From a bacterium HR08 (lineage in GTDB: Bacteria; Acidobacteriota; Blastocatellia; HR10), in NCBI GenBank assembly GCA_002898775.1, contig BEHK01000002.1, positions 1 to 49,533 on the forward strand: DNA of 49,533 nucleotides, in the 5' to 3' direction. Numbering within the stretch: the stretch's first letter is position 1; every line of letters starts with the position of its first letter. The notes beneath the pieces were generated by a model. The model did not search any database and was not told where the DNA came from. It was given only the letters and a program-made list of their open reading frames with translations. Positions 7,101 to 45,509 of the stretch are shown here, one piece after another. The translations under genes and the position numbers were made by a program.

Positions 7101-7501
7101 ACTCCAGCGGGGCGTCGCTCTTCGGCGTGACGACCTCGCGCGCGAGCTTCGCTCCGGGAGCGACGCTCAAGACGGCTCTCCGACAAGGGCCTGTGCACCG
7201 CCGTTTGAATCAGTTCTTCAATCCGGCGGCGTTCGTCACGGCGGGCCCGGGCTTTGGGAACGCCGGGCGGAATATCCTCACCGGGCCGGATCAGCGAAAC
7301 GTGGACCTATCGCTCCTCAAGCGAATTCCCGTTCGTGAGGGGCAATATCTGGAATTCCGCGCCGAGTTCTTCAACGCCTTCAATATCGTCAACTTCGCCA
7401 ATCCGGGGAGCGACATCGCCACGCCGGCGACCTTCGGGGTGATCACTCAAACGAGCACCAGTCCGCGCCTCGTTCAGTTCGCCCTGCGGTACAGCTTCTG
7501 A
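4193..7501 (+). CDS. TonB-dependent receptor, Oar-like, with N-terminal carboxypeptidase-regulatory-like domain
   Basis: Signal peptide, GQITGTVRDPSGAV, LQEFKVQTSLYDASYGRSAGG, SGTNEFHG, LTLNLGLRYE, NNFAPRFGFAY, C-terminal PRLVQFALRYSF. Confidence 0.95.
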   Translation: MKFKRLSLLCLILVLCSSGRAAAQSASTGQITGTVRDPSGAVLPDALVVAKSPTGLVREVRTDEAGRYVIPLLPPGVYRLEISRAGFKTYVLEDVTVRLTETTVADASLEIGELAETITVEAENPLLQADRPTTGRVITGRALTELPLATRNFTQLFALTAGTNVDLPDHSAAGLNTLDISVNGLNRYNNNFQLNGIDTNGIGINNAFSYPVPAPDALQEFKVQTSLYDASYGRSAGGQIVVVTRSGTNEFHGSFYHFLRNDKLNANDFFFNSTGTPRPKFIRNQFGFTLGGPISRDRTYFFGSYQGSRERNGAARGALSTLALPPLLTNDRSPAGIARASGVPEAVISPVALRLLNARLPDGSLVIPSPQVNRPGVNYSVSVPIRFREDQFTVNLDHQLRANNKLSGKFFFTQNPEKVGLNVFFGANVPGFGSSLQNNNRHLALSDLHIFGPNLTNEVRVGLHRLAADFRPNEPITAASVGISRFNTSIFPGIPTIGVLGSFQIGPGPFDQLFTVINTFTYADTISYVRGRHHLRVGVEVRRLQENGDLPSFHRGQILFLDFPSFVRGDIFLTLVASGISDFHYRNTDFNAFVQDDVKVSPRLTLNLGLRYEFNGAASDKFGRLQTFDPAQYRTGPPPNGFVIAGNAKGRFRVPGVPLVSDTILKSEDPNNFAPRFGFAYRLSEAHRVVLRGGYGIFFDRLSNQPPFFAVGSIPFGAFDVGVFPTAFRGATFANPFPNLGLPSEFPKVPIVPNAAQLAAGTAPISGFFMDPNMRTPYAQQYNLNLQYEFAKDFLLEIGYVGTKGTKLIQQVRIAQAQLASPSRPINGITENTPANAVLRSRFLGFSPDGLKQFQTSGNSTYHSLQLTVTKRLGRGLQFLAAYTLSKWLDDRTTITGLQGDATAFAPGDQFHLSLNKGRSDLDRRHRLVVSGTYDFPTIAKRGALGHLLSGWELAWIATFQSGRPFSILDSSGASLFGVTTSRASFAPGATLKTALRQGPVHRRLNQFFNPAAFVTAGPGFGNAGRNILTGPDQRNVDLSLLKRIPVREGQYLEFRAEFFNAFNIVNFANPGSDIATPATFGVITQTSTSPRLVQFALRYSF

Positions 7502-25732: not shown

Positions 25733-26220
25733 AAGATCTTCGGGCCGAGGTCCTTCAACCACAAGACGGCCTCATCGGGCCGCCCTTCGGGTTCGCGTCG
25801 AACACCGGCCTCGACCACCTCCCCGACGACCACGGCATGATCGCCCCGCTCGACGACGTCCGTGACGCGACATTCGACGAAGGCCGGCACCGCCCGCAAA
25901 ATGGGGCTTCCCGTTGTCCCCGCGTCATACTCATGCCCGCCGATCTGCCGCTCGTCACTCTCAACCGGTTTGAAGAACGCGTAGGCGATCTCTCCTTGAT
26001 CCTTCCCCAGAAAATTCAATGCGAACGCTCCAGAAGAGCGCAGCACGCCGTAAATGCGCGAATCCGTTTTGACGGCGACGACCACAAGGGGAGGCTCGAA
26101 CGACGCTTGCGTCACCCAATTGACCGTCGCCGCCGCGGCTCCCTCCGACGAACGCGACGTCAAGACATAGAGTCCGTAGGGAATCATGCGCAACGCCGTC
26201 TTCTTCGCCTTCTCGTCCAT
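25720..26220 (-). CDS. Flavin reductase-like FMN-binding protein
   Basis: IPYGLYVLT, WVTQASFEPPL, GDHAVVVGEV; convergent 13-nt overlap with the D-aminoacylase. Confidence 0.9.
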   Translation of the reverse strand: MDEKAKKTALRMIPYGLYVLTSRSSEGAAAATVNWVTQASFEPPLVVVAVKTDSRIYGVLRSSGAFALNFLGKDQGEIAYAFFKPVESDERQIGGHEYDAGTTGSPILRAVPAFVECRVTDVVERGDHAVVVGEVVEAGVRREPEGRPDEAVLWLKDLGPKIFYGG

Positions 26221-26333
26221 CCTCGCCTCCTCGAAGAAGAATCGCGAAGGGGTTCAAATCTTACCAGAAGCGCTCGCTCCTTGAAAGACCGGGCGAGCGT
26301 TCGCGGCGTGTTCGGCCGTGAGGCACCGGGCGT

Positions 26334-26362
26334 TTGACTCTCCCGCCCGAGCTTGATAATGT
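26334..26362 (+). promoter_or_regulatory. sigma70-type promoter of the propeller-amidohydrolase gene
   Basis: TTGACT-17 nt-TAATGT with extended TG; GGAGGGAGG SD downstream. Confidence 0.55.
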
Positions 26363-26392
26363 GACCCCGAAACGCCTTCTGGAGGGAGGGTC

Positions 26393-29300
26393 ATGAGGAG
26401 ACGGAATCGAAGGGCGCGCTCACTTCGCGTCGCGCTTTTTCTGCTCGCGATCATCGCCTGCCCTTCTCCTTCGCGCTTTCCCCTCTGGGGCCAGGAACCG
26501 AGGTCGGAATCGAAGCCGGAGGAGAAGAGAGAGGAGCTCCCCCTCACACCGACGGAGACGATCGAGTTCGTCACGGACGAAGGCACATGGATGTCGCTGG
26601 ATGTCTCTCCCGATGGCCAGACGATCGTCTTCGATCTTCTGGGGGATCTCTATGTGCTGCCCATCACCGGTGGTGAAGCGAAGCGCATCTTCGGGGGGAT
26701 GTCCTTCGAGAGCCAGCCGAGGTTCTCACCCGATGGAAAGCGGATCGTCTTCCTCAGCGACCGCAGTGGGGCCGAGAACGTATGGGTGGCCAATGCCGAT
26801 GGCTCCGATCCGAGGCCGGTGACGAAAGGGCGCCACCAGATGTTCGCCTCGCCGACGTGGACGCCGGATGGTCGCTATATCGTCGTCTCCCGCTCGACCG
26901 ATCCGATTGGGACGTTCTCCCTCTGGATGTATCACATCGAGGGAGGGACGGGCGTTCAGATCGGGCCGCCGGATCCCCCCCTTCCCGAACCGGACTCGCA
27001 AGAACCGGCTCGGCCTCGCCAGAATAAACTGGGAGCGGTCGTCTCGCCCGATGGGCGATATCTCTACTATTCCGTGCGCACGGGGGCGTTCACCTACAAC
27101 GCGATGTTTCCTCTCTGGCAGATCGTTCGCTTCGACCGTGAAACGGGAGAGACGACGACCCTCACCAATGCTCAGGGGAGCGCCATGCGGCCTGTTCTCT
27201 CGCCTGATGGGAAGAGGCTCGTCTATGCGACCCGGTATGAGACCGGAACGGGCCTGCGCATCCGCGATCTGGAGACGGGCGAGGAGCGCTGGCTGATCTA
27301 TCCGGTCACGCGCGACGATCAGGAATCGCGCGCGACGCGCGATACGATGCCCGGATATGCCTTCCTCCCTGACGGGCGAGCGCTCATCGTTCCCATCGAA
27401 GGGAAGATCTGGCGCGTGGATGTCGAGACGGGGCAGCGCACACTGATCCCTTTCACGGCTAAAGTCGAAGCGGAGATCGGCCCGCGCGCCTACTTCCAGT
27501 ACCGAGTGGAAGACAGTCCGATGGTGCGCGCGCGCTTGATTCGCTGGCCCACCCTCTCTCCGGATGGCCGGCGTTTGGCCTTCACCGCGTTCAACAGGAT
27601 TTGGATCATGGAGTGGCCTTCGGGGACGCCGCGACGGCTGACGAATGCCTCTGTCGGAGAATTCATGCCCACGTGGTCTCCCGATGGCCGGTACATCGCC
27701 TACGTGACATGGACGCCGCAGGGCGGCCACATCTTCCGCGCGGCCGTTGACGGAGGTTCACCTCCGGAGCCACTGACCCGTCGCCCGGCGTACTACTCCT
27801 CCCCCGTCTACTCGCCCGATGGCTCCAAGATCGTCTTCATTTCCGGTCCGACGCGGCAACACCTGTATGCAGAACTCCGAGAGCGTGCTTCTGGACCGCG
27901 TCCGGACCTCCTTTCCGAAGGAGCCCACGCCGCGGAGATCACGGGCATTCCGCCGAGGATCGGGCTGGACTTGCGGTGGATCCCCGCCGAAGGGGGAGGG
28001 TCCAGGCTCATCGGGCCGACGCAAGGAGGCATTTCGCCCCACTTCGCTCGTGAGCCCGACCGCATCTACATGACGACGTCGCGCGGCTTGGTCTCGCTGC
28101 GACTGGATGGACGGGATCGGCGCACCCACTTTCGCGTGCGCGGTTCGGCTCCTGGTCCGTTCCCGCCCGATGCTGAAGAGATTCGGCTCTCGCCTGATGG
28201 CGAGCGCGCTTTCGTCAGCCTGCAGAACAAACTCTATCTCATTCCCGTCCCAAAGGCCGGGGGCGAGACGATCACCATCGCGATCACGCCAAATGGGCCA
28301 TCGGCCGTGCCCGTCAAGCGACTCTCTCTGGAGGGTGGTGATTATCTCAACTGGACGGCGGATGGAAAGGCGATCACGTGGTCCTGGGGAGCGAGATTCT
28401 ACCGGCAGGACCTCTCGGCCGAGAAACCGGACATGACGGACGTCGTCGTCGAAGTCCCCCGAGCGCGACCGACCGGTACGATTGTCCTGAGCGGCGCACG
28501 ACTCATCACGATGAAGGGCGATGAGGTCATCGAGCGGGGCGACATCGTCATCACCGGGAATCGCATCGTGGCGATCGGCCCCAAGGGCCGAGTCCCCATT
28601 CCCGCTGGCGCTCGCGTTCTCGACGTGACCGGGAAGACGATCATCCCGGGCTTTGTGGACGTCCACGCGCACATGTGGCCGCCGCGCGGCGTGCACCAAA
28701 CGCAGGTCTGGCAATACCTGGCCAATCTCGCCTACGGCGTCACGACCACGCGTGATCCGCAAAGCTCGACGACCGATGTCTTCGCGTACGCCGATCTGGT
28801 CGAGGCCGGCGAGATTCTCGGACCGCGCATCTTCTCGACCGGTCCTGGGGTCTTCTCGCGCTCGGGGCTTGATGACCTGGACGCGACGCGCGCCCTCCTC
28901 AAGCGATACAAAGAGGCGTATCAGACGAACACGCTGAAGCAGTACGTGGCGGGTGATCGCATCGTGCGACAGTGGGTGGTGATGGCCTGCCGAGAGTTGG
29001 GGATCACGCCGACGACCGAAGGCGCGCTCGACATGAAGCTGGACCTCACGCAGATGGCCGACGGCTTCTCCGGACAGGAACACGCGCTGCCGATTCAACC
29101 GCTCTACAAGGACGTCATCGAGTTCGTCGCGCGAACGAAGACGTTTTATACCCCCACGATCCTGGTGGCTTACGGAGCGCCGTTCACGGAGAACTATTAC
29201 TTCACCTCGCACGATGTGCACGGGGATCGGAAGCTGCGTCGCTTCATCCCTCATGAGGTCTTAGACACGATGGTCCGACGTCGGCGCCAGTGGTTCCTGG

Positions 29301-29725
29301 CTGAGGAATATGGACACACGGGGATCGCTCGCGCCTGCGCCGCCATCGTTCGCGCCGGCGGGCGCGTGTGCCTCGGCAGTCACGGACAGCTTCAAGGTCT
29401 CGGCGCGCATTGGGAGTTGTGGAGCATCGCTTCGGGCGGGATGTCTCCCCATGAGGCGTTGAAGGTCGCGACGATCTTCGGCGCCGAAGCGATCGGCCTG
29501 CAGCAAGACCTCGGATCGCTCGAAGTCGGCAAGCTCGCGGATCTCCTCGTGCTCGATCGGAATCCGCTCGTGGACCTCCGTCACACGGTGAGCATCCGCT
29601 ACGTGATGAAAAACGGCTTCCTCTTCGACGGCGACACGCTCGATCAACTCTGGCCTGTGCCGAAGAAGTTGGAGCGTCAGTACTGGTGGGAGGATGACCC
29701 TCCCCCGGCCACGACGAACAAATAA
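26393..29725 (+). CDS. Secreted amidohydrolase with N-terminal TolB-like (PD40) beta-propeller repeats
   Basis: Signal peptide; EGTWMSLDVSPDG and many SPDG repeats; IPGFVDVHAH, GSHGQLQG, GKLADLLVL. Confidence 0.93.
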   Translation: MRRRNRRARSLRVALFLLAIIACPSPSRFPLWGQEPRSESKPEEKREELPLTPTETIEFVTDEGTWMSLDVSPDGQTIVFDLLGDLYVLPITGGEAKRIFGGMSFESQPRFSPDGKRIVFLSDRSGAENVWVANADGSDPRPVTKGRHQMFASPTWTPDGRYIVVSRSTDPIGTFSLWMYHIEGGTGVQIGPPDPPLPEPDSQEPARPRQNKLGAVVSPDGRYLYYSVRTGAFTYNAMFPLWQIVRFDRETGETTTLTNAQGSAMRPVLSPDGKRLVYATRYETGTGLRIRDLETGEERWLIYPVTRDDQESRATRDTMPGYAFLPDGRALIVPIEGKIWRVDVETGQRTLIPFTAKVEAEIGPRAYFQYRVEDSPMVRARLIRWPTLSPDGRRLAFTAFNRIWIMEWPSGTPRRLTNASVGEFMPTWSPDGRYIAYVTWTPQGGHIFRAAVDGGSPPEPLTRRPAYYSSPVYSPDGSKIVFISGPTRQHLYAELRERASGPRPDLLSEGAHAAEITGIPPRIGLDLRWIPAEGGGSRLIGPTQGGISPHFAREPDRIYMTTSRGLVSLRLDGRDRRTHFRVRGSAPGPFPPDAEEIRLSPDGERAFVSLQNKLYLIPVPKAGGETITIAITPNGPSAVPVKRLSLEGGDYLNWTADGKAITWSWGARFYRQDLSAEKPDMTDVVVEVPRARPTGTIVLSGARLITMKGDEVIERGDIVITGNRIVAIGPKGRVPIPAGARVLDVTGKTIIPGFVDVHAHMWPPRGVHQTQVWQYLANLAYGVTTTRDPQSSTTDVFAYADLVEAGEILGPRIFSTGPGVFSRSGLDDLDATRALLKRYKEAYQTNTLKQYVAGDRIVRQWVVMACRELGITPTTEGALDMKLDLTQMADGFSGQEHALPIQPLYKDVIEFVARTKTFYTPTILVAYGAPFTENYYFTSHDVHGDRKLRRFIPHEVLDTMVRRRRQWFLAEEYGHTGIARACAAIVRAGGRVCLGSHGQLQGLGAHWELWSIASGGMSPHEALKVATIFGAEAIGLQQDLGSLEVGKLADLLVLDRNPLVDLRHTVSIRYVMKNGFLFDGDTLDQLWPVPKKLERQYWWEDDPPPATTNK

Positions 29726-29800
29726 CCGCGCCACTTCTCGATGCGGGATCGGGCCCTCACGTCGGACTCGATCCATCGCCCGGCGGCCAGGACGCGCGCT

Positions 29801-31147
29801 TCACCGCTCAGCCGAAGCCTGGCCGCGCTCGTCCTTCTCCCGTTCGATCTCCGCGCCGAGGGAGCGCAGCGCGAGGTCGAGCCGATCATATCCCCGCTCC
29901 AAATGCTCGACCCCTTCGATCACGCTCTCCCCACGCGCGGCGAGCGCGGCCAGAAGGAGCGCCGCCCCGCCTCGAATATCCGTCGTCCGCACCGTCGCCG
30001 GGCGAAGCGGCGTCGGTCCGAAGATGCGAATGGCATGGAAGAATTCAGGGCGATCGTCCTCGAGATTGAAGTTGTACACAGCATCCGGATCCTCGACAGG
30101 GGGATTGAAGAACTCGATGCGCGCGCCCATTCGCTGCAACTCCCGCGCGTAGTGGAAGCGGTCCTCGAAGACGGTCTCATGAATGACGCTCACGCCGTGA
30201 GCCTGTGTGAGCGCTGGAGCGATGAGCGGCTGCCAATCGGTCATGAACCCCGGATGCGGCGCCGTTCGAAGGAACACCGGCCGCAAGGGCCCTTGAGACC
30301 AGACGCGCCACCTCGTCCCAACGCACGCGAATCCCGCGCCGATCTCCTCCAACACGGTGAGGAACGCGCGCACATCAGCCGGTCGCACATCCTCGATCTC
30401 GACGTCTCCTCCCGTCACCAGTGCCGCGCAGGCGAAGGTGACCGCTTCGTTGCGATCCGGCAACACGCGATGCCGAGCGCCGTGCAGCCGCGAGACCCCC
30501 TCGATGCGAATCGTTCGCCGATCCGGGCGATGAATACGCGCTCCCATCGCCGTCAGGAAGGTGATGAGATCGTCCACCTCGGGCTCTTCGGCGGCGTTCT
30601 CCAAAATGGTCTCCCCCCGTGCGCACGCGGCCGCCAGAAGCATAGCCTCAGTCCCCGTATGCGTATTCTTCGGGAAGCGATATCGCGCGCCGCGCAGCTG
30701 TTTGGCGCGAACGCGCAGATGCTCGCCACACTCGTCCACGCGGGCGCCCATGGCCTCGAGTCCGGCGAGGAGGCGATCCAGAGGGCGCCGCCCGATCGGA
30801 TCTCCCCCGGGCTGAGGGACGCTCGCCTCGCCGAAGCGCACAAGCAGCGGTATCAGCAAAAGCGGCGAAGCCCGAGTTCGCTCCACCGAGCCCGCGCGCA
30901 CGTGCGCGTCCTGAAGGGAGCGCGGATCAATGATCCACGTCGTCGGATCGGAGCGCATCGCCCGCCCTCCCAGACGCTCGATCGTGCGCGCGACGATGCG
31001 CACGTCCTCGACATCGGGAACATTCTCCAGGACGCTCGGGCCGTCAGCCAAGAGCGCGGCGATCATTGCCTTGAACGCCGTATTCTTGGCCCCGCTGACG
31101 CGCACGCGCCCGCTGAGCGGTCGTCCGCCTCGGACCTTCCACCTCAT
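29801..31147 (-). CDS. murA: UDP-N-acetylglucosamine 1-carboxyvinyltransferase (Asp-type active site)
   Basis: SGAKN, RAS, PGGDPIGRRP, ENAAEEPEV, PDRNEA, PHPGFMTDWQ, HETVFEDR, DIRGG, LERGY; ATGA overlap with murB. Confidence 0.93.
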   Translation of the reverse strand: MRWKVRGGRPLSGRVRVSGAKNTAFKAMIAALLADGPSVLENVPDVEDVRIVARTIERLGGRAMRSDPTTWIIDPRSLQDAHVRAGSVERTRASPLLLIPLLVRFGEASVPQPGGDPIGRRPLDRLLAGLEAMGARVDECGEHLRVRAKQLRGARYRFPKNTHTGTEAMLLAAACARGETILENAAEEPEVDDLITFLTAMGARIHRPDRRTIRIEGVSRLHGARHRVLPDRNEAVTFACAALVTGGDVEIEDVRPADVRAFLTVLEEIGAGFACVGTRWRVWSQGPLRPVFLRTAPHPGFMTDWQPLIAPALTQAHGVSVIHETVFEDRFHYARELQRMGARIEFFNPPVEDPDAVYNFNLEDDRPEFFHAIRIFGPTPLRPATVRTTDIRGGAALLLAALAARGESVIEGVEHLERGYDRLDLALRSLGAEIEREKDERGQASAER

Positions 31148-32079
31148 GTGTCCCACGTCCCCAGGTATCGAATCTCTTCCTCCAGCAGAATGCCGAACCG
31201 ATCGCGCACGGCCGCCTTCGCCAACTCGATCAGCGCCCGAATCTCCCGCGCCGTCGCCCCACCGACGTTGAGGATGAAGTTGGCATGCTTCTCGGAGATC
31301 TGCGCTCCACCCAGCCGATATCCCTTCAACCCGCAGGCCTCGATCAGGCGACCGGCGTAATCCCCCGGGGGATTTTTGAAGACGGAGCCCGTGCTCGGTC
31401 CCGAAGGTTGATGCTTCCGCGCCTCGAGCATCTGCTGCATCCTCGCCTCGATGTCGGAGCGCGATGCCCGATACCCCCGCAGCCGAGCCGCCAGCACCAC
31501 GTCGCTCGTTCGCTGAAATCGGCTCCGCCGGTATCCGAAGTCCAACTGCGAAGCCGGCCAGACGACCACCTCACCCCGATCGTCCACCGCCTCCACCTCG
31601 AGCACGCGCTCGCCGATCCATTCCTCCCGCGTCCCGGCATTTCCGACGATCGCCCCCCCCAGCGTTCCGGGGATTCCGATGAGGAACTCAAATCCGGCGA
31701 TCCCCGCCTCACACGCGCGGCGCGCCAGGGCCACGAGATTCGCCCCCGATTCGGCCCGGATCTCCGCCCCAGAAATCGCCACGCCTTCGGTGCGATTGAG
31801 GATGACGAGTCCGGGGATTCCGGCATCGGAGACGAGGACATTGGCGCCGTATCCGAGGACCGTCACCGGCAGCCGAGCCTCGCGCGCCACGCGAACGGCG
31901 GCCAACAGGTCCGCTGGCGTGCGAGCGATGAAGAACCATTCAGCCGGTCCTCCCACGCGCCAATTGACATAAGGCGCCAGTCGCTCGCGACGCCGAAGCC
32001 GCCCCGGCCCCAATCGCGTTTCGAAGGCGCGCGCGAATTCAACGGCCGCCGCTTCGGCGGCTTCACCCCTCTTGGCCAT
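31144..32079 (-). CDS. murB: UDP-N-acetylenolpyruvoylglucosamine reductase
   Basis: WRVGGPA, GYGANVLV, GIPGTLGGAIVGNAG, FGYRRS, GSVFKNP, SEKHANF. Confidence 0.95.
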   Translation of the reverse strand: MAKRGEAAEAAAVEFARAFETRLGPGRLRRRERLAPYVNWRVGGPAEWFFIARTPADLLAAVRVAREARLPVTVLGYGANVLVSDAGIPGLVILNRTEGVAISGAEIRAESGANLVALARRACEAGIAGFEFLIGIPGTLGGAIVGNAGTREEWIGERVLEVEAVDDRGEVVVWPASQLDFGYRRSRFQRTSDVVLAARLRGYRASRSDIEARMQQMLEARKHQPSGPSTGSVFKNPPGDYAGRLIEACGLKGYRLGGAQISEKHANFILNVGGATAREIRALIELAKAAVRDRFGILLEEEIRYLGTWDT

Positions 32080-32107: not shown

Positions 32108-32956
32108 TCAGCTCATGCGGAGAATCTCTTCCAGGGCCGTGCGCCCGTCCGTCTGCTCATCGCGATATTTCACAATGAGCGGCGTCAGGATCGAGAGCCC
32201 GTGGGCGCGTGCGAACTCTCCCGAAGCCGGCCGTGTGCCCGGGACGACAACCGCGCCCTCCGGAATCACCAGAGGCTCGTCACGCGTGCCGCGATAGATG
32301 CGCTCGCGCACGAGGTCGTAGACGGGCGTCGAGCCGGTCAGGATCACACCCGCGCCCAGCACGGCTCGCCGTTTGATGATCGTCCCCTCGAAGACGCCGC
32401 ACTGACTCCCCACGAGCACCTCATCCTCAATGATGACCGGCCATGCGCCGGGGGGTTCCAGCACCCCACCGATCTGCGCGCCGGCGCTCAAATGCACGCG
32501 CTTGCCGATCTGCGCGCAGGAGCCGACCAGCACATGGGAATCCACCATCGTGCCCTCGTCCACGTACGCCCCCACGTTGATGTAGGAAGGGGGCATGACG
32601 ACGACGCCCGGCGCCAGATACGCCCCATCGCGAATCGTCGTCCCCCCAGGCACGATGCGAATCCCCAGGCGCATCCCCTCGAGCGCCTTCAAAGGATAGG
32701 TGTCCTTGTCGAAGAATCGGAACTGCGCGTTGATCGAATAGTCGGCGAGCGCACCGATGCGGAATCCGAGCAAGATGCCCTTCTTCACCCATGCATTCAC
32801 GATCCAACGCCCCTGGACGAGTTCGGCCGCTCGGATCCGCCCTTGGTTGAGCTCCCGTTTGAACTCCTCGAAGATCGGACGACCCTCCCGCCGCGCCTCC
32901 TCCAGGGGGGCGTCCAAGAGCCGCTCGATCTCAGCTCTGAGCCGCGTGTGCTCCAT
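32108..32956 (-). CDS. dapD: Tetrahydrodipicolinate N-succinyltransferase
   Basis: [52 protein letters not shown] hexapeptide repeats. Confidence 0.95.
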
Positions 32957-33860
32957 GTCCTGCTCCCGCCGGAATGAGATTCAAATCGGCGAGAATCTGC
33001 CGCAGCCGCTCGCGCGTCTCCGGGCGCGGCGGGACCAGCGGCAGGCGATAATTTTCCTCGATCAACCCCATCATGGCCAGGGCCGCTTTGACGGGGATGG
33101 GGTTCGTCTCCAGGAAATTGCCACGCATGAGCGGCAGCAGCCGATAATGGAGCTCGCGAGCGCGCGCCCAATCCCCGGCGAGCGCGGCCGCCACCAGCTC
33201 TCGCATCTCGGCCGGCGTCTGGTTGGCGATGACGGAGATCACCCCATCCCCCCCGAGCGCGAGGACCGGCAACGTCCACGCGTCGTCTCCGGAGAGAACG
33301 AGGAACCCCTGCGGTCGCACGCGCAAAAGCTCCATGATTTGCTCCAGGTTCCCCGACGCCTCCTTGATGCCGATGATGTTCGGAATCTCCGCCAGACGCA
33401 AGACCGTCTTCACCTCCAGATTACATCCGGTCCGACTCGGCACATTGTAGAGGATCACGGGAAGGCGCACCGACTCGGCGATTGCTCGGAAATGTTGATA
33501 GAGCCCCTCTTGCGTCGGCCGATTGTAATACGGGGTGACCGAGAGCACGGCGTCGGCCCCCGCTCGCTCAGCGTGCCGCGCCAGCTCCACGGCCTCCTCG
33601 GTCGCGTTCGTCCCAGCTCCCGCGATCACGGGCGCGCGCCCGCGAACGCGCTCGACGACGCGGCGAATGATCTCACGCTGCTCCTCCGGATGCAGCGTGG
33701 CGCTCTCGCCCGTCGTCCCACAGGGGACGAGACCATCCATCCCCGCCTCGAGCTGGAAATCCACAAGCGCCTCCAACCGCTCATAATCCACCTGTCCATC
33801 GCGCCGAAACGGCGTGACCAAAGCGACAAAGCATCCGCGAAATCGGCTCGTTCCACTCAT
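32931..33860 (-). CDS. dapA: 4-hydroxy-tetrahydrodipicolinate synthase
   Basis: [49 protein letters not shown]. Confidence 0.96.
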
Positions 33861-34612
33861 AGGCTTCCTCCTTCTTGAAGAAGGTGATCCACGACCTCCT
33901 CGAACGAAAAGATACCCCGACGGTCTCTCGCAAACCGGGCAGCGACGAGCGCCCCCAGCGCGAAGGCCCGCCGATGGCGAACCGTGTGCGTGATCTCCAA
34001 AGTTTCAAACGGAGCGTCGAATCCCACCAGGTGCGTCCCCGGATGCGCGCCAGCACGAACCGAAGCGACGCTGATCCCATCGGGCGGGATGCGCCCTTCG
34101 AGCCGCGTGACCAGGTGCGTCTTCCGCTCCAGATGCTCGAGCAGAATCCGTCCCAAGCGAAGTGCTGTGCCACTCGGATGATCGGCCTTCCGCCAATGGT
34201 GCCACTCGACGAGGTAGGGATCGAAGTCGGAGAAATGCCGGAAGAGGCGCGCGCCATACGCCACCAGGCGAAAGAGCACGTGGATCCCCAGACAGAAATT
34301 CGGCCCGTAGACGAACCCGATCTCCGCGCGCTCGATCGCCGGCCGCACCTCATCCCACCGATCGTACCACCCGGTCGTGCCGACGACCATGGGCTTGCGC
34401 GCCTCGACAACCCGCTGAATATTGGTCACAACGGCCTGCGGCGTGGAGAAGTCCACGCAGACATCCACGTCGCGCAGGGCTTCAGCGGTCAGCCCTCGCC
34501 CCTCCGGATTCGTGCGCGAGGTGAAGATCGGCCCGACCTGAAAGCCCGCCTCACGAGCCGCCCGTTCGACCTCTCGTCCCATCTGCCCATATCCAATCAC
34601 CGCGATACGCAT
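33857..34612 (-). CDS. dapB: 4-hydroxy-tetrahydrodipicolinate reductase
   Basis: IGYGQMG, VDFS, VVGTTGW, EWHHWRKADHPSGTA, RRAFALGA; GGAGG SD. Confidence 0.95.
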   Translation of the reverse strand: MRIAVIGYGQMGREVERAAREAGFQVGPIFTSRTNPEGRGLTAEALRDVDVCVDFSTPQAVVTNIQRVVEARKPMVVGTTGWYDRWDEVRPAIERAEIGFVYGPNFCLGIHVLFRLVAYGARLFRHFSDFDPYLVEWHHWRKADHPSGTALRLGRILLEHLERKTHLVTRLEGRIPPDGISVASVRAGAHPGTHLVGFDAPFETLEITHTVRHRRAFALGALVAARFARDRRGIFSFEEVVDHLLQEGGSL

Positions 34613-34622
34613 CGTGACCTCC

Positions 34623-34661
34623 AAAATAAAAAGCCCCTCGAAACCGAGGGTTTCGAGGGGC
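34623..34661 (-). terminator. Intrinsic terminator (attenuator) immediately upstream of the dapB SD
   Basis: Minus strand GCCCCTCGAAACC-CTC-GGTTTCGAGGGGC perfect 13-bp stem followed by TTTTTATTTT. Confidence 0.9.
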
Positions 34662-34686
34662 CCGATCCACGCCGGCCCGAATGGGG

Positions 34687-34851
34687 CTACGTCACCCCCT
34701 CAGGCCGAGGAGGACCGAGCCCCGTGCGCTTGACCCGCTTCATCTGCGCATGCTCGCGCAGGATATGATCATCCCATCGGACGGAGACGCCCGATGCGAT
34801 CCCACGCGCTTCACCGCCCATCCCGTTCACCGCTCGCGCCTCTGCGTTCAT
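34687..34851 (-). CDS. Putative dap-operon leader peptide (54 aa; alternative 18-aa form from ATG 34743)
   Basis: MNAEA...QMKRVKRTGLGPPRPEGVT*; its only two Lys codons (34738-34740, 34729-34731) lie just before a hairpin; stop lies 25 nt upstream of the terminator stem. Confidence 0.6.
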   Translation of the reverse strand: MNAEARAVNGMGGEARGIASGVSVRWDDHILREHAQMKRVKRTGLGPPRPEGVT

Positions 34852-34860
34852 CGCGCGGTG

Positions 34861-34889
34861 ATGATGCCACATCTTCTTCACGGTGTCAA
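34861..34889 (-). promoter_or_regulatory. sigma70-type promoter of the leader-dapBAD-murBA transcript
   Basis: Minus strand TTGACA-17 nt (ending TGG)-CATCAT; leader ATG 9 nt downstream. Confidence 0.65.
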
Positions 34890-34979
34890 GCCGATCATCG
34901 CGCGCCTCTCGCGACATGGCGAGCGCCGCTCGCGAAAGCTGAGAACAGGCGCCCCCCACAGCACGAGGAAGCCCTCCCC

Positions 34980-37493
34980 TCAGAACGGCATAGGCTTCAC
35001 GCCGAACTCGCGAAAGAGCGCGCGCTGGTTGTAGAGCATCGGCCGCACGACCGGGAGCCATGGGAAGAACCGGCTCGGCGGAATGAACGCGCTCTGCCCC
35101 GAGGGAAGGCGATTCCATCCGCGCGGCGGATTCGTCAGCTCCACGACCTGCGTGTACGTGGCTCGATTCGCCTTCGGAACCGAAGGGCCCACATGAAATC
35201 CGAAGAGGTGGCGAAAGCGGATCATCTCGCGCGCGCTCCATGGCATCATCCACATCGCCCCATACATGCGCCCGAGATCCTCCACAGCCTCCCGCGCGCT
35301 CCTCGCGATGACCTCGCGCCAGTCCGCGCCATTGAAATAGTCGCGCGCGGGAGGGACGCCGGACCGCGCGCCCTCCAGGACGTGAAGCACCGTGCTGATG
35401 TTCACCTCCGAGAGCCCCTCATCGCCCAATTCATCGGCGAAGATGTTCCGAACGAGGCGCCGCCAAATAGCCTCGAAGACCACATTCGCCGGATCCGCGC
35501 CGGGCGCGGCGATGGCATCGGCGTAGAGCGCGCCGTCCCAATTCTGCAGGAGCTGCACGACCACCCCTAAGCGCGGATCGCTGGAACTCGCTTCCTCCAG
35601 CGCCCGCGTGAGATATCCCCCGAGGAATTCCAGCTTCGGACCGGTGTCGTCGAAGCGCGCGATGTCCTCCTCCAATGTCAGAAGATCCTCGACCCCTATC
35701 CGCGCATCGCGCGCCTCTTTGGAAGCGCGTCGGATGAGCCGCATGGGCTCGGCCAAGAGACTCATGATCCGCAGCACGCGATGTTGCTTCCCGAAGAGCA
35801 CGTCGTCCGGATTATCGAAGTCCACCGCCGGCTTATTGTTCCAATTCGCGAGCCACCCCTGCCGCGGATTGCGCACATGAGGCAAGGGATGCGTCGTCGC
35901 GCTCCACTCGGCTTCCCCTGTCCCCGGCAAGGGGAGGCGCGGATCGTATTCGCTCGGGCGAACGGGCACCCATCCGGCGAGCCAATAGGCGATGTTCCCG
36001 TCCACATCCGCATAGAGAAAGTGGTGCGAAGTCGGGATCCGCCGAACCGCTCGCTCGAAATCCTCCAGCGTCTGCGCCCGATTGATCTCCAAAAATCCCA
36101 CCCACGTCTCCGTCTCCCTCATCCAATGAGCCCGCTTGAGCGTGATCGCGATGTGGTTGGCTTCGTCCACGTAGAGCACGGGACCATGAACCGTCCGCCT
36201 GACGAGAATCGTCTTCGTCTTCGCCGCGCGCAGCGGAAAACCGAGCGGAGACGTCCGAATGGCGATGACCTCCTCGCGGACCTCCATGCGCCGATACGCC
36301 CCTTGGTAGAGGTACTCCTCGTGATTCGCGGGATTCAACTGCTCGATGTAGAGATCAGCATTATCGCCGGGACCACTGGTCGTCGTCCACGCGATCCGCT
36401 CATTGTGCCCGATCAAGACGGCCGGTCCGCCGGCGAAGGCCATCCCCGTCACGTGCCACCCCGGAGCTTTCAGATGCACCTCGTGCACGATGTCCGGATA
36501 GAGGAATCCCATCTGCGGCCCGCCGAGCAAGAGGGGGTGCCCTGTCCGCGACCTGGCCCCGTCAATGACGAATCCGAAACTTCCGAACGTGACGGGCAAG
36601 CCCAAAAGTTGGAAGAGCGTTCGACGCCGCTTCTGCCACCGCTCATATGCGGTGAGGAAGGAGCGGAGATCCGGAAGCCGACGGTAAAACGAGAGCAGAG
36701 GATTCCGCCGCTTGGAACGGGTGCGCATGGCGAGCGCGCGAGCGCTTTGCCCTGGGCTCCACTGCTCCTCGGGCGGTACGGTCACTGGGGCTTCCGGATC
36801 ATTCAACCACCGGAGGTCTTCGAAGATCGCTTCTCCCTCCTCCGGTCCGTGTCGGTTCACGAGCTGCTGGTAGAGGGCGAGATTGCGCAATTCCCGCCCG
36901 CCGCGCTCGCCGAAGATGCGCGCGGCTAATCGGCAGATGGCGATCGAATCCGTGACCGTCCACGGCTCCGGGAAGTATCCGAGGAGGTGGAATTCCCACG
37001 GCAGCTTTCGCATCGGGTCCTGGCGCGCCTCCGCCAGGTACCGATTGATCCCATCGCGATAGGCGGCGATGGCGCGCCGGGCGAATTCGGGCATCGCCGC
37101 GTACATGAGTTGATATTCCGACTCCGTATATCCGTGCTGACGCTGCTCGACATCCAGCTCGACGAGCTCAATCGGCCCCCGCACCTCGACGCTCGTCACG
37201 ATGTTGCCGAGAACCTCCGCCAAACGTCCGCGCGCGGCTCGCCGAAAGACCTCCAGTTGCCAGAGTCGATCCTGCGCGACCGCATAACCGTAGGCCTCGA
37301 AGAGATCGCGTTCGTTCTCCGCCTCGATGCTCGGCCGACCGTACTCGTCCCGAGAGATTCGCGCCGTCGAGATGGTCGTCTCCTCGGCGCGATCGGCTGT
37401 GACCGCCGGTATCCCCAAGGCCCTCCAGAGGAGGATCGAGAGACACGCGATCCCCACGCTCCATCGGGTGAAACGTCGAGACAGCCGACACAT
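34980..37493 (-). CDS. Penicillin/AHL acylase-family Ntn-hydrolase (peptidase S45), secreted
   Basis: Signal peptide; ISRDEYGRP, GYAVAQDRLWQL, beta-chain start G/SFGFVIDG (Ser codon 36579-36581), GHNERIAW, RRTVHGPV, YADVDGNI, NWNNKP. Confidence 0.93.
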   Translation of the reverse strand: MCRLSRRFTRWSVGIACLSILLWRALGIPAVTADRAEETTISTARISRDEYGRPSIEAENERDLFEAYGYAVAQDRLWQLEVFRRAARGRLAEVLGNIVTSVEVRGPIELVELDVEQRQHGYTESEYQLMYAAMPEFARRAIAAYRDGINRYLAEARQDPMRKLPWEFHLLGYFPEPWTVTDSIAICRLAARIFGERGGRELRNLALYQQLVNRHGPEEGEAIFEDLRWLNDPEAPVTVPPEEQWSPGQSARALAMRTRSKRRNPLLSFYRRLPDLRSFLTAYERWQKRRRTLFQLLGLPVTFGSFGFVIDGARSRTGHPLLLGGPQMGFLYPDIVHEVHLKAPGWHVTGMAFAGGPAVLIGHNERIAWTTTSGPGDNADLYIEQLNPANHEEYLYQGAYRRMEVREEVIAIRTSPLGFPLRAAKTKTILVRRTVHGPVLYVDEANHIAITLKRAHWMRETETWVGFLEINRAQTLEDFERAVRRIPTSHHFLYADVDGNIAYWLAGWVPVRPSEYDPRLPLPGTGEAEWSATTHPLPHVRNPRQGWLANWNNKPAVDFDNPDDVLFGKQHRVLRIMSLLAEPMRLIRRASKEARDARIGVEDLLTLEEDIARFDDTGPKLEFLGGYLTRALEEASSSDPRLGVVVQLLQNWDGALYADAIAAPGADPANVVFEAIWRRLVRNIFADELGDEGLSEVNISTVLHVLEGARSGVPPARDYFNGADWREVIARSAREAVEDLGRMYGAMWMMPWSAREMIRFRHLFGFHVGPSVPKANRATYTQVVELTNPPRGWNRLPSGQSAFIPPSRFFPWLPVVRPMLYNQRALFREFGVKPMPF

Positions 37494-37703: not shown

Positions 37704-39542
37704 TCAGACTTCCGATGAGGGATGATCGGGATCCATCGCCGGGTCGGAGGTCTGACGCTTCCGCCTCCGATAAAAGATCGAGCGATGCAGGCCCGAACGC
37801 CGCGCGGCTTCAGCGATGTTCCCCCTTGCCTCTTCCAGCGCGCGGCGGATCAGGGCGTCCTCCAACTCGGCGATATACGTGCGCGCGATCTTCAGAATGG
37901 CGCGACGACGCCGTTCCAAGTCCGCTCGATCCACCGGCGGCGTGCGCAGATAGACGCGAAGGGGATTCTTCTCCGCCTCAAGAGCGCGCCACCGACCGAG
38001 CAGCGACTCCGGCAAATCTTGGACGCGAATCTCATCCGATAGGGCCAGCAGGACGAGCCGCTGCACCAGGTTCTCCAGCTCTCGAACGTTGCCGGGGAAT
38101 GAATACTCCTGGAGCGCGATCAACGCCTCGGGATGAAACCGGAGCGTCGGACGCCCGGCGGCCGGAGCGTATTTCTTCAGGAAGTGCAGCGCCAGCAGGG
38201 GAATATCTTCCGGACGTTCGCGAAGCGGTGGGAGGCGCACGGGGATGACATTCACGCGATGGTAGAGCGCTTCCAGAAACTTCCCCTCGGCAACCATCTG
38301 GTGGAGCAGGCGACTCGTAGCGGCGACGACGCGAACATCCACGCGAATCGGCCGGCTCCCCCCCAAGCGCTCGAACTCCTGAAATTGCAGGAAGCGAAGT
38401 AACTTCGCTTGCACGGGGAGAGGGAGCTCGCCGATCTCGTCCAGGAAGAGCGTCCCCCGATGGGCCAATTCCACGCGTCCCAGGCGACGTTCGAGCGCAC
38501 CGGTGAACGCCCCCCGTTCATGTCCGAACAATTCCGATTCCGCCAGCGCCTCCGGCACAGCCGCGCAATTGACGACCACGAACGGTCCCTGGGCTCGCGG
38601 ACTCAGCGCGTGCAGCGCGCGCGCGAGCATCTCCTTCCCCGTCCCCGACTCCCCCTCAAGCAAGACGGTCGCCGAAGACGGCGCCACCTGAACGATCGTC
38701 TGCACGACCCGTCGCCACTCCGGATTGATGCCCACCAAGCCCTGCAAGACCTCGCCGGGCGGCTCGCGCGAGAGCGCATCGCGAGCGCTCAGAGCCGCGT
38801 GCAACCGATCAGCCGCTTCCAGATATACGGCGATGATCGGCGCAATCCGGGCGAGGAATTCCCGATCCGCCTCCGAATACATCGCGGCGACGGTATTGTT
38901 CTCCAAATAGATCGCGCCGAAGCTCACGCCGCCAATGGCGAACGGGGCCACCAGGACGGAGCGCACGCCGCGCCGCACGATGCTCGTCTCCTGCGCATAT
39001 GCGGGATCCGAGAGCGCATCCCGAATGAGCAGCGTTTCGCCGGAGGTGAGCGCGCGCCACAGCAGCGTCCGACTGAAGGCGTGCTCCTCCGCCGCCAAAT
39101 CCTCCGAGCGAAAATTCCGAGCGCACGCCAGCAGAACGCGCGTCGGATCCACGCCGATCTCCTCCCCGATGCGCCGTCCCCCCGGATACAGCACCAGAAG
39201 AGCGCGTTCCGAGCGCGTCTCGGCGAGCAGCAGATCGGCGACCTGCTTTAGAAAGTCCCCCGAAGACGCGCTGTGGAAGTAGAGATCGGCCAACTGTCCG
39301 GCGACGCGCCCCAGGCGACTCTCCCGCACAAGCGACTGCAACTCGATGAGCGCTCGATCGAGCTTCTCCAGCTCATCGCCGCGAATCTGCCCGAGCGCCC
39401 TGGCGACCGCACTCAGCAGACGCCGGGCCTCGGGCTCCGAGAGATCCTCCTGCTGCGCGCGAGCAACGCGTTGCTCCAATTGCTCGAGCGCCCACCGGAC
39501 GTCACGGAGAAGATGCGCCGCTCTCTCCCACCACGTGCTCAT
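37704..39542 (-). CDS. sigma54-dependent enhancer-binding protein: N-terminal coiled coil, GAF, AAA+ and Fis-type HTH
   Basis: GAF (RSVLVAPF...GAIYLEN), GESGTGKE, ESELFGHERGAFTGA, LFLDEIGE, FPGNVRELEN, GNIAEAARRSGLHR. Confidence 0.95.
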   Translation of the reverse strand: MSTWWERAAHLLRDVRWALEQLEQRVARAQQEDLSEPEARRLLSAVARALGQIRGDELEKLDRALIELQSLVRESRLGRVAGQLADLYFHSASSGDFLKQVADLLLAETRSERALLVLYPGGRRIGEEIGVDPTRVLLACARNFRSEDLAAEEHAFSRTLLWRALTSGETLLIRDALSDPAYAQETSIVRRGVRSVLVAPFAIGGVSFGAIYLENNTVAAMYSEADREFLARIAPIIAVYLEAADRLHAALSARDALSREPPGEVLQGLVGINPEWRRVVQTIVQVAPSSATVLLEGESGTGKEMLARALHALSPRAQGPFVVVNCAAVPEALAESELFGHERGAFTGALERRLGRVELAHRGTLFLDEIGELPLPVQAKLLRFLQFQEFERLGGSRPIRVDVRVVAATSRLLHQMVAEGKFLEALYHRVNVIPVRLPPLRERPEDIPLLALHFLKKYAPAAGRPTLRFHPEALIALQEYSFPGNVRELENLVQRLVLLALSDEIRVQDLPESLLGRWRALEAEKNPLRVYLRTPPVDRADLERRRRAILKIARTYIAELEDALIRRALEEARGNIAEAARRSGLHRSIFYRRRKRQTSDPAMDPDHPSSEV

Positions 39543-43495: not shown

Positions 43496-44905
43496 ATGTC
43501 CGATCAAGAACTCGCTTTCCTCTCGATCCGCGAACTCGCTCACCTCATTCGATCCCGGCGTCTCTCGCCGGTCGAACTCACGAGAGTGTATCTCGATCGG
43601 CTCGAGCGGCTTGGACCGAAACTCGGCGCCGTCGTCACGATCACGCACGACGCGGCCCTGGAACAAGCCCGTCGGGCTGAACGCGAGATCATGCGCGGCC
43701 GGTATCGCGGCCTGCTGCACGGCATCCCGTACGGAGTGAAGGACCTGCTGGCGACCAAAGGCATCCCCACCACCTGGGGCGCCGCGCCGTATCGGAATCA
43801 GATCTTCGATCACGATGCGACGGTCGTGCGCCGTCTGCAGCGCGCCGGCGCTGTGCTCGTCGCGAAACTCGCGATGGTGGAGCTGGCCGGAGGCATGGGG
43901 TATAACACGGCCGATGCCTCCTTCACGGGACCGGGACGCACGCCATGGAATCCCGAGTACTGGAGTGGGGGATCTTCCTCGGGGTCCGGAGCGGCCGTCG
44001 CCGCTGGGCTCGTCGCCTTCGCCATCGGCTCGGAGACTTCGGGTTCGATCCTGACGCCCGCGGCCTTCTGCGGCATCTCGGGTCTGCGCCCGACCTACGG
44101 GTTGGTGAGCCGATACGGCGCCATGGCGCTGTGCTGGACGCTCGATAAGCTCGGCCCCATGTGTCGGACGGCTGACGATTGCGGGATCGTGCTCGCCGCG
44201 ATCTCCGGCAAAGATCCGAAGGATCCCTCGAGCGTGGCTCGACGATTCACCTATTCGACCCCCCTCCTTCCCACGCGACGTCTGCGGGTGGGCATTGTCC
44301 GAGGCGCGCTCGACCGTGTGCAACCTGAAGTGCGGAAGAATTTCGAGGACGCGGTCGAAGTCCTCAAGAAATACGCCACCGTGGATCCTGACGTCGTGCT
44401 GCCGGACCTCCCCTATGGGCAGGTCGTCGGGATCATCGTCAATGCGGAAGGCGCGAGCGCCTTCCGCGAGCTGATCGAGAGCGGGCGTCTGGCGGAATTG
44501 CAGAATCCGCGCGATCGCCTTGGAGGGTATGTGGGGATGACCATCCTGGCCGTGGATTATCTGCAGGCTCAACGCGTTCGCGTGCGAATCCGTCGCGCGC
44601 TCGATGAGGTGCTCTCCCGGTACGATGCCCTGATCGCTCCGACGCGGGCGACGGTCGCCTATCCGATCGGCGTGGAATTCGAGCGCGCGTATCCGGGCAT
44701 GGGCGGCGGGCCAGCCCTCATCCCGGCCGGCAATGCCGCGGGCGTTCCGGCGCTCTCCGTCCCCAACGGGTTCGGACAAGCGGGATTACCGACGGCACTC
44801 CAACTGATGGGTCGCGCCTTCAGCGAAGCGACGCTCATCGCGCTGGCCAATGCGTACCAGCGAGAGACGGATTGGCATCGGAAGCGCCCACCGCTCCAGG
44901 CGTGA
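43496..44905 (+). CDS. Amidase-signature family amidase (GatA-like fold), no signal peptide
   Basis: HGIPYGVKDL (Lys), GGSSSGSGAAVA, IGSETSGSI, GLRPTYG; AGGAGG SD. Confidence 0.95.
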   Translation: MSDQELAFLSIRELAHLIRSRRLSPVELTRVYLDRLERLGPKLGAVVTITHDAALEQARRAEREIMRGRYRGLLHGIPYGVKDLLATKGIPTTWGAAPYRNQIFDHDATVVRRLQRAGAVLVAKLAMVELAGGMGYNTADASFTGPGRTPWNPEYWSGGSSSGSGAAVAAGLVAFAIGSETSGSILTPAAFCGISGLRPTYGLVSRYGAMALCWTLDKLGPMCRTADDCGIVLAAISGKDPKDPSSVARRFTYSTPLLPTRRLRVGIVRGALDRVQPEVRKNFEDAVEVLKKYATVDPDVVLPDLPYGQVVGIIVNAEGASAFRELIESGRLAELQNPRDRLGGYVGMTILAVDYLQAQRVRVRIRRALDEVLSRYDALIAPTRATVAYPIGVEFERAYPGMGGGPALIPAGNAAGVPALSVPNGFGQAGLPTALQLMGRAFSEATLIALANAYQRETDWHRKRPPLQA

Positions 44906-44936
44906 ACTCGCGCCGGGAGAAGGCGGGATGCCCCCT

Positions 44937-45407
44937 TCAGGCCAGTTCGGAGAACGCCGCGACCGTCGGCTCGCTCAACCGCAGGAAATCGGCCATGCGC
45001 ATCCGAATCGAATCCGTATGCGTCCCCGCGTTGAAGACGATCTCCTCATCCTGCGTCAAGGGCTCGGCCACGTAGACAGGAAGGCCGTAGAGATTGCCGA
45101 AAATCGGCATCGCGCCAATCTCGCAGTCTGGGAAGAGGTCTTTGAACTCAGCCTCCGTGGCCAAACGGACGTCCGTGGCGCCGACGACTTCGGCGAATCG
45201 CGCCAGATCCACCTTGTGATGCGCGGGCAGGACGGCCATCACGAACCGGTCGTCGGCTTTGAGGATCACCGCCTTCGCCATCTCGCGGCCCCGCACATGG
45301 AGCGCGTGGGCGATCTCCTGCGCCGTGAACGCCAGCGAGTGCGTGCAGGCGACATAGGGGACGTGGTGCTCATCGAGGTATTGCTTCAATCGGGCGATGA
45401 TTCCCAT
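44937..45407 (-). CDS. YbaK/ProX-family aminoacyl-tRNA editing protein
   Basis: MAKAVIL (Lys), RLATEAE, FPDCEIGAMPIFG, VFNAGTH. Confidence 0.9.
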   Translation of the reverse strand: MGIIARLKQYLDEHHVPYVACTHSLAFTAQEIAHALHVRGREMAKAVILKADDRFVMAVLPAHHKVDLARFAEVVGATDVRLATEAEFKDLFPDCEIGAMPIFGNLYGLPVYVAEPLTQDEEIVFNAGTHTDSIRMRMADFLRLSEPTVAAFSELA

Positions 45408-45509
45408 ACCCCCCCTCCACAGATCGTGCGCTCAAAGGGAGTCTCGTCGTGACCTTCGAGATCGCGCGAGGCACCCGCGAGCTATTGTCCCACGTTCGGA
45501 GGGCAGCGG

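Follow-up and report, generated by a model that had tools for sequence, protein, structure and literature searches.

Genes for the synthesis of lysine and diaminopimelate (DAP) are, in the textbook case, controlled by the L-box riboswitch. Another mode of control, attenuation through a leader peptide with Lys codons, reportedly acts on the alpha-aminoadipate (AAA) lysine cluster of Thermus thermophilus. The classical leader-peptide attenuators are those of enterobacteria (trp, his, leu, thr, pheA and ilv), with background in PMC2965389 and PMC1262725. We analysed a stretch of 49,533 nucleotides (nt), contig BEHK01000002.1 of the bacterium HR08 assembly GCA_002898775.1 (Acidobacteriota, Blastocatellia), hereafter the window. 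On its minus strand, to which all leader and operon features below belong, lies a leader ahead of dapB-dapA-dapD-murB-murA. As judged from sequence comparison and fold models, this leader is probably a ribosome-mediated transcription attenuator that senses Lys.

Like the classical attenuators, the dapB leader has a promoter-proximal short open reading frame (ORF) with codons for the pathway product. In both, an intrinsic terminator precedes the first gene, bases of its 5' arm also serve an alternative hairpin, and ribosome position would select the fold. The dapB leader has 45 to 54 codons and is apparently leaderless, whereas classical leaders have 14 to 32 codons. Also unlike the classical cases, it has just two sensing codons, three codons apart, it lacks a conserved 1:2 protector hairpin, and its untranslated RNA is predicted to default to the antiterminator. 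Its overlap with the terminator is only 6 to 7 nt, and its host belongs to the Acidobacteriota. The T. thermophilus leader is said to resemble it in having Lys codons in the leader peptide of a lysine-pathway operon in a thermophile, but that system serves the AAA pathway in another phylum and has another leader, while the genes here belong to the DAP pathway.

The lysine riboswitch (RF00168) takes the same regulatory position in a genome of the same order, G009 (C134:3465-9500; L042), where an RF00168 match is followed in one direction by lysC, an M20 peptidase gene (DapE-like), dapB, dapA, dapD and an aminotransferase gene. Lysine-responsive control of the dap gene set thus exists in the lineage. 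Unlike the riboswitch, the dapB leader has no RF00168 match and no conserved aptamer-like structure, and it would sense charged tRNA at the ribosome, not free lysine. In literature searches, with subscription journals mostly outside their reach, neither a leader with Lys codons on genes of the DAP pathway nor a characterised attenuator of the leader-peptide type in Acidobacteria was found. A match to 'tandem lysine codons' was set aside, as it concerns translation efficiency. If the proposal is true, the same control point has been rebuilt within one order with charged tRNA replacing free lysine as the signal, and leader-peptide attenuation extends to the Acidobacteriota.

As shown in Table 1, the leader lies in a spacer of 368 nt between the end of a penicillin-amidase gene (34980) and dapB. 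A preliminary description made from the window alone had proposed a promoter TTGACA-17-CATCAT, a near-leaderless ORF of 54 codons with Lys only in MKRVKR, a perfect 13-bp terminator abutting the dapB Shine-Dalgarno sequence, and dapB, dapA, dapD, murB and murA downstream. Our consensus scan recovered the promoter (34889..34861) and added a TG before the -10 hexamer; 2 promoter-like sites were found in 2.5 kb compared with 0.3 expected. The spacer between the -35 and -10 hexamers is 17 nt in 11/11 aligned rows, and the -10 hexamer reads CATCAT, CATCCT, CATTCT, TACTCT, TACTTC or TACTCA. The ORF runs from ATG 34851 to TAG 34689-34687, and its only Lys codons are two AAG, both in MKRVKR. The place of the terminator and its U tract were as described, but its stem counts 15 pairs, of which 13 are Watson-Crick and 2 are G-U. 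Its 5' sequence GGGCCCC is common to the antiterminator. Pfam and NCBIfam agree with the names of the downstream genes.

Blastn found the leader ahead of dapB in 6/6 other genomes of the genus and gave no match in 34 genomes outside it. In 4 of these 6 genomes the similarity does not start until close to the first AAG. Scanning metagenome contigs for the pattern yielded 8 more loci. The comparison set used below consists of 10 distinct leaders, drawn from 7 genomes of one Blastocatellia genus and from metagenome contigs. Dropped rows were L023 (leader same as in the window), L025, L026 and L027 (identical to L006, L024 and L002, respectively) and L029, which ends short at 232 nt; two variants seen only as peptides were excluded from the DNA counts. 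In five other genera of the order the region upstream of dapB differs, in that lysC or another gene abuts dapB or no terminator is present. A search with a peptide profile in 401 genomes of the class returned the 7 of the genus and 3 weak matches; the latter were rejected on inspection, as they lie within other genes or in an unrelated 5' region. A pattern scan with one genome per species gave 5 records, labelled HR10, Blastocatellia, Acidobacteriota, 'uncultured Clostridia' and 'bacterium'.

The ORF bears the marks of a translated leader. A start codon stands 9 to 10 nt past the -10 hexamer in all 10 variants (ATG in 9, GTG in 1), and the frame that begins there is open in each of them for 45 to 54 codons and has its stop codon in the loop of the hairpin. 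None of the other five frames is open in all 10 variants; the two other forward frames have 1 to 5 stops each, and of the reverse frames one is open in 7 variants, one in 6 and one in none. The distances from the start to the first invariant AAG are 111, 105, 102, 99 and 84 nt, all multiples of 3. Transcription usually starts about 7 nt past the -10 hexamer, and a start there would leave a 5' untranslated region of 2 to 3 nt. In one metagenome variant (L028) the G-run before the stop is one G shorter, which gives an overlapping TGA five bases earlier and a leader two codons shorter; this could be a real variant or a homopolymer assembly error.

Within the N-terminal 33 to 37 codons, differences are spread evenly over the codon positions and are mostly non-synonymous. 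Between the window and G005, for example, 6, 11 and 6 differences fall on the first, second and third codon positions, and there are 4 synonymous compared with 15 non-synonymous codons. The N-terminal peptide therefore drifts freely while its frame is kept, a pattern that fits a leader peptide, whose translation matters and whose sequence does not, and not a functional small protein.

The picture changes exactly at the first AAG, where column conservation sets in, 17 nt ahead of the nearest conserved helix. All 10 variants have both AAG codons, with spacings of 17 and 8 nt from the first base of the codon to the hairpin throughout. The next codon after the first AAG differs in its third base among variants (CGG, CGT, CGA) and is once TGG, and KRVKR is also found in two further peptide variants from the protein database. 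The stop is likewise fixed, its TAGC being invariant in an otherwise variable loop. The conserved Lys codons and ORF on which the preliminary description depended are thus present in relatives, with start, frame, both AAG and stop kept in 10/10 distinct leaders. In six neighbouring genes Lys accounts for 39/2441 codons (1.6%) and Arg for 11.1%, so two Lys within four codons are a local enrichment and the Arg codons are unremarkable. A shorter ORF starting at the ATG of MKRVKR was considered as the conserved leader and rejected, since this ATG is found in only 4/10 variants and the others have ATA, CTC, ATC or GTC.

We compared the window with Rfam (4227 families) and found 0 matches at the gathering thresholds. 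In sensitive mode, with E up to 10, the region 34500-35100 gave no lysine riboswitch and no T-box, as had been expected. The 8 sub-threshold matches obtained there are at chance level, and the best of them, with 22 bits against a cut-off of 49.5 bits, in essence aligns the terminator. In the upstream part of about 115 nt RNAalifold found no convincing conserved helix, which makes an aptamer unlikely. RF00168 was found in 0/7 genomes of the genus, where the assembly of the window itself is 73% complete, and it does match 9/41 relatives overall as well as the control genomes.

The leader is more stable than shuffled sequences (z -3.7 for 249 nt and z -4.7 for 123 nt), with 0/200 shuffles as stable. 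Its minimum free energy (MFE) fold is a 67-nt hairpin whose inner-stem loop holds the UAG. In the outer stem, GGGGCUCGGUCC (34723-34712) pairs with GGAUCGGGCCCC (34668-34657), and the last six pairs take up GGCCCC (34662-34657), which the terminator 5' arm also needs. When the long hairpin is closed, the terminator is reduced to a 9-bp stem, five bases from the U tract. The long hairpin would thus be an antiterminator. It has 28 pairs, with standard pairs in 93.5% of 279 cells across the variants, and 3 of the pairs change on both sides. The RNAalifold consensus is the same hairpin, and one of its inner pairs shows a GC/AU exchange (4 and 4 sequences). The terminator is paired in 99.3% of cells, and 11/15 of its pairs never vary.

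This fold departs from the preliminary description, which had proposed a smaller hairpin (34723-34683) as the 1:2 element of a mutually exclusive 1:2 / 2:3 / 3:4 layout of the trp/his type. The smaller hairpin can form as written and contains the TAG, but it is a transient sub-fold and not the fold of the full leader. It is paired in 89.9% of cells, and it is the MFE fold only for nascent transcripts of the window sequence about 72 to 78 nt into the test segment. Forcing it gave -66.8 compared with an MFE of -74.1 kcal/mol in the window (a cost of about 7), -52.4 compared with -71.1 kcal/mol in L005 (about 19) and -57.7 compared with -77.2 kcal/mol in L004 (about 20). In the same proposal GAGGGG (34701-34696) was to pair with the terminator 5' arm; it is complementary to CCCCTC (34660-34655), but this 6-bp antiterminator is displaced by the 28-pair hairpin. 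With its 1:2 hairpin 7 to 20 kcal/mol worse than the MFE, the three-way layout is not supported. The revised layout is, in these models, one of two states with no clear protector hairpin. The proposal of a Lys-tRNA-sensing attenuator remains probable, with no Rfam match, a conserved ORF with its AAG codons, and a predicted fold that flips on masking as set out below.

The switch of folds was tested by masking the ribosome footprint, with its edge at +11 or +15, in thermodynamic models only. With the A site on the first AAG, the MFE fold keeps the antiterminator in 10/10 variants (edge +11) or 9/10 (edge +15). When the mask covers all of the sequence through the 5' arm, the contested C's go to the terminator at a probability of 1.00 in 10/10 variants. 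The preliminary description had expected such a flip. Masking everything up to the 5'-arm end replaced masking at the stop codon; when just a ribosome at the stop was masked, the outer arms paired around the ribosome in 4/10 variants, which was judged physically implausible. At equilibrium, with the A site on the first AAG, the antiterminator holds the contested C10' at 0.50 in 4 variants, the window included, and at 0.86-0.99 in the other 6. With the second AAG in the A site, the hairpin starts at +12 from the P site. Structural work on mRNA entry channels and frameshift stimulators puts the limit at which a duplex can still stand about there, so the second AAG may be the last waiting point that keeps the hairpin closed. 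At the stop, the leading edge of the ribosome would be about 13 nt short of the terminator stem, and for this reason a terminating ribosome should not block the terminator.

From the elements and how they are conserved, together with the open frame and the computed switch of fold, we infer the following course. Transcription would start a few bases before the ATG, and a ribosome would load on the leaderless or nearly leaderless ORF, which enters the long hairpin and ends at the UAG in its loop. When Lys-tRNA is plentiful, the ribosome would translate into the 5' arm and keep the hairpin open, the full terminator would form, and transcription would stop before dapB. When Lys-tRNA is scarce, the ribosome would wait at the first AAG, or at the second, which abuts the hairpin. 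The hairpin would then stay closed and leave the terminator as a 9-bp stem apart from the U tract, and RNA polymerase would read into the operon. If this is true, genes for DAP and for cell-wall precursors are switched on when charged lysine tRNA runs low.

Other leaders of the same genome bear on the Lys reading. A scan of the genome for terminators just ahead of long ORFs gave 25 candidates, two of which, besides that of dapB, have short ORFs with codons that match the pathway. A candidate Ile attenuator precedes a gene for citramalate synthase (cimA; TIGR00977, 747 bits) at about 6923-7333 (-) of contig C47 of the same genome, G000 (L040:1924-2340:-). Its 45-codon ORF ends ...LPLAITIRLIILPASGSG*, has an Ile-rich stretch ...AITIRLIIL... 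and is followed by competing hairpins and a 15-pair terminator. A candidate Cys attenuator precedes a cysteine synthase gene (cysM/cysK-like; the best model is cysM, 368 bits, just under the cut-off of 394 bits) at about 2480-2826 (+) of G000 contig C17 (L041:180-527:+). Its ORF, MARLCCCRR..., has 3-4 TGT codons, its promoter reads TTGACA-17-GAAAAT with a TG, and, from reading the sequence, CUCUCCGGCGG is complementary to both the upstream CCGCCGGA and the terminator 5' arm.

All 7 genomes of the genus have both leaders, in which 3-4 Ile or Cys codons are retained. The presence of pathway-matched leaders at cimA and cysM in the genus makes a Lys reading of the dapB leader likelier. Like the dapB leader, each has a short ORF whose pathway codons closely precede competing hairpins and a strong terminator, and the promoter of the cysM leader is similar to that of dapB (TTGACA, 17 nt and a TG-extended -10). 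They differ in that, as we read the sequences, they have an ordinary four-segment layout and possible Shine-Dalgarno-led starts, whereas the dapB leader is longer, begins at the 5' end of the transcript and is two-state. Three amino-acid-matched leaders in one small genome would make a compact system for transcription-translation coupling in an uncultured thermophile, and the design at dapB is unusual in its long leaderless ORF, its two states and the lack of a protector hairpin.

Several results weigh against a lysine-specific attenuator. As to the folds, the antiterminator and terminator compete for just 6 to 7 nt and differ in the window by about 1 kcal/mol (-65.8 compared with -64.8 kcal/mol), so the switch may be leaky. 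The MFE fold of the free RNA already holds the full terminator in 2/10 variants. In the subgroup of the window the antiterminator is occupied only to about 0.5 with a ribosome at the first AAG. The outcome at the second AAG depends on the footprint, with the antiterminator kept in 5/10 variants for an edge at +11 and in 0/10 for an edge at +15, where the terminator forms in 10/10. Covariation is thin, as the 3' half is nearly invariant, and 13/28 antiterminator pairs never vary. The 10 variants come from one genus and perhaps represent 3-4 independent lineages.

As to specificity, the RNAalifold consensus holds no conserved protector (1:2) hairpin to sequester the 5' arm, and a stall anywhere in the N-terminal part, or no initiation at all, should leave the antiterminator closed. 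Without a protector hairpin, lysine specificity is argued from codon conservation and context and not from the fold. The leader as a whole is not Lys-rich, having just two Lys codons (2/54). The operon includes murB and murA, and its logic may be cell-wall supply and not lysine. In addition, inspection of relatives showed neither a leader of this kind nor a terminator at lysA and lysC of the genus.

The main rival, which we consider unlikely, is that the leader is a translation-coupled attenuator without lysine specificity. The terminator would then work only with a ribosome moving through the hairpin, and the signal read by the leader would be the overall capacity for translation, or a shortage of any amino acid used in the peptide; KRxKR would be kept for another purpose, for example slowing of the nascent chain. 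With no conserved protector and free RNA mostly in the antiterminator form, any upstream stall would be roughly equivalent to a Lys stall, and the N-terminal part offers many types of codon, including 5-7 Arg. The mixture of DAP and murein genes in the operon also suits such a general signal. What speaks for Lys is that the sole invariant sense codons outside helices are the two AAG and the following CGC, that Lys is rare in the neighbouring genes, and that the two other leaders of the same genome match their pathways. Increased synthesis of cell-wall precursors during general starvation would, moreover, be physiologically implausible.

A second possibility, which appears very unlikely, is that a trans-acting RNA-binding protein or small ligand sets the balance between hairpin and terminator and that the open frame is incidental. 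Such a factor might bind at the AAGCG-N4-AAGCGC stretch or at the hairpin itself. The 17 nt before the hairpin and the loops of hairpin and terminator are conserved beyond what pairing needs, and the two folds are close enough in energy for a weak binder to tip the balance. An incidental frame, however, does not account for a frame, start and stop kept in 10/10 variants while other frames close, for insertions and deletions in multiples of 3, or for third-position changes (CGG, CGT, CGA) in the codon after the first AAG. There is also no conserved upstream structure and no Rfam match. AAGCG-N4-AAGCG was tried as a shared binding site and rejected; its 28 copies in the genome form no pattern, being mostly intragenic and unlinked to lysine genes.

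TnaC and SpeFL are arrest peptides that sense their ligands, and it is conceivable, if highly improbable, that the C-terminal KR-x-KR...G-L-x-P-P-x-P-E of the leader peptide acts similarly. It would pause the ribosome on the antiterminator 5' arm, at Pro-Pro or at the stop, and the pause could depend on EF-P or free lysine. P47, P48 and P50 (Pro-Pro-x-Pro) are invariant in 10/10 variants (34702-34713 (-) in the window, codons Pro-Pro-Arg-Pro). The second Pro codon changes from CCU to CCG in 5/10 variants, by which Pro is kept and the RNA pair at columns 46-82 is broken, which hints at selection on the amino acid. The same nucleotides form helices, however, which explains most of the conservation without a peptide, and over the last 17 codons synonymous changes are no more numerous than non-synonymous ones (1 compared with 5 for G004 and G003, for example). 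Pro-Pro-x-Pro may be a ribosome-pausing motif on the antiterminator arm.

Scarcely credible is a small-protein gene with its own terminator and no regulation, dapB being served by leak-through or an unrecognised promoter. In its favour, the ORF is long for a leader peptide, and 6 database entries hold overlapping versions of it from gene callers. Its N-terminal two thirds, however, are without purifying selection on amino acids, and no Pfam family matches the peptide. The U tract runs directly into the dapB Shine-Dalgarno sequence with no room for a promoter, and the stop is located within the hairpin that rivals the terminator.

The Lys-sensing attenuator may also be drawn in a bolder form, which we regard as quite unlikely. 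In it the lysine riboswitch of the dap operon would have been replaced, in a thermophilic Blastocatellia genus, by a leaderless peptide of about 50 codons that reads Lys-tRNA charging at two AAG codons at the mouth of the antiterminator, while a Pro-Pro-x-Pro brake keeps the ribosome on the 5' arm for long enough to let the terminator fire. This hybrid of codon sensing and programmed pausing would be one of a set of Lys, Ile and Cys attenuators in a phylum from which no characterised leader-peptide attenuator is known.

Table 1. Positions in the window of the leader elements and of the genes that follow them.
Feature	Position	Strand	Basis and remarks
-35 hexamer TTGACA	34884..34889	-	Consensus scan; TTGACA or TTGACG in all relatives; GGCTTGAC kept in all aligned leaders
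Extended -10: TG, one base, CATCAT	34861..34869	-	Consensus scan
Leader ORF, 54 codons and TAG, near-leaderless	34687..34851	-	ATG at 34851, 9 nt past the -10 hexamer; TAG at 34689-34687
First invariant Lys codon AAG	34738..34740	-	17 nt before the antiterminator; predicted productive stall site
Second invariant Lys codon AAG	34729..34731	-	8 nt before the antiterminator; borderline stall site
Long antiterminator hairpin	34657..34723	-	MFE fold and RNAalifold consensus; leader stop in the loop
Smaller hairpin of the preliminary description	34683..34723	-	Transient alternative sub-fold
Intrinsic terminator, loop CUC	34631..34663	-	15-pair stem: 13 Watson-Crick and 2 G-U
U tract UUUUUAUUUU	34623..34632	-	Sequence
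dapB Shine-Dalgarno GGAGG	34618..34622	-	Immediately 3' of the U tract; dapB ATG at 34612
dapB (4-hydroxy-tetrahydrodipicolinate reductase)	33857..34612	-	TIGR00036, 140.9 bits, cut-off 122
dapA (DHDPS family)	32931..33860	-	Pfam
dapD (tetrahydrodipicolinate N-succinyltransferase)	32108..32956	-	Pfam and NCBIfam
murB	31144..32079	-	Pfam
murA (EPSP_synthase fold family)	29801..31156	-	Pfam

Between the U tract and the dapB start, L005, L006, L007, L024 and L030 have about 15 nt extra (CGGCGAAUUCGAGGAGG and similar). By eye, UUCGAGG in this extra piece overlaps the dapB Shine-Dalgarno sequence and is complementary to CCUCGAA of the terminator 5' arm, and this complementarity may provide a second, translational layer.

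Neither lysC nor lysA turned up in the assembly to which the window belongs (73% complete). In 5/5 genomes of the genus searched (G001 and G003-G006), one contig carries both lysA and dapB, about 18 kb apart; in G005 (C16), for example, lysA occupies 44493-45836 and dapB 26119-26865. In the window's genome lysA would then be located just past the end of the window's contig, which would explain its absence from the assembly.

The name murA is suggested by the family and by the place of the gene after murB. Past the 3' end of murA, 27758-29776 (-) holds two long ORFs of 498 and 171 amino acids without a Pfam match, both overlapped by a plus-strand ORF of 1110 amino acids (26393-29725). The 498- and 171-amino-acid ORFs are probably not genes, and the operon probably ends with murA. 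Upstream of the penicillin-amidase gene is a gene for a GAF-domain sigma-54 activator (enhancer-binding protein; 37704-39542 (-)). A search for sequencing runs turned up none with RNA; the one run listed for the lineage carries a hot-spring metagenome label.

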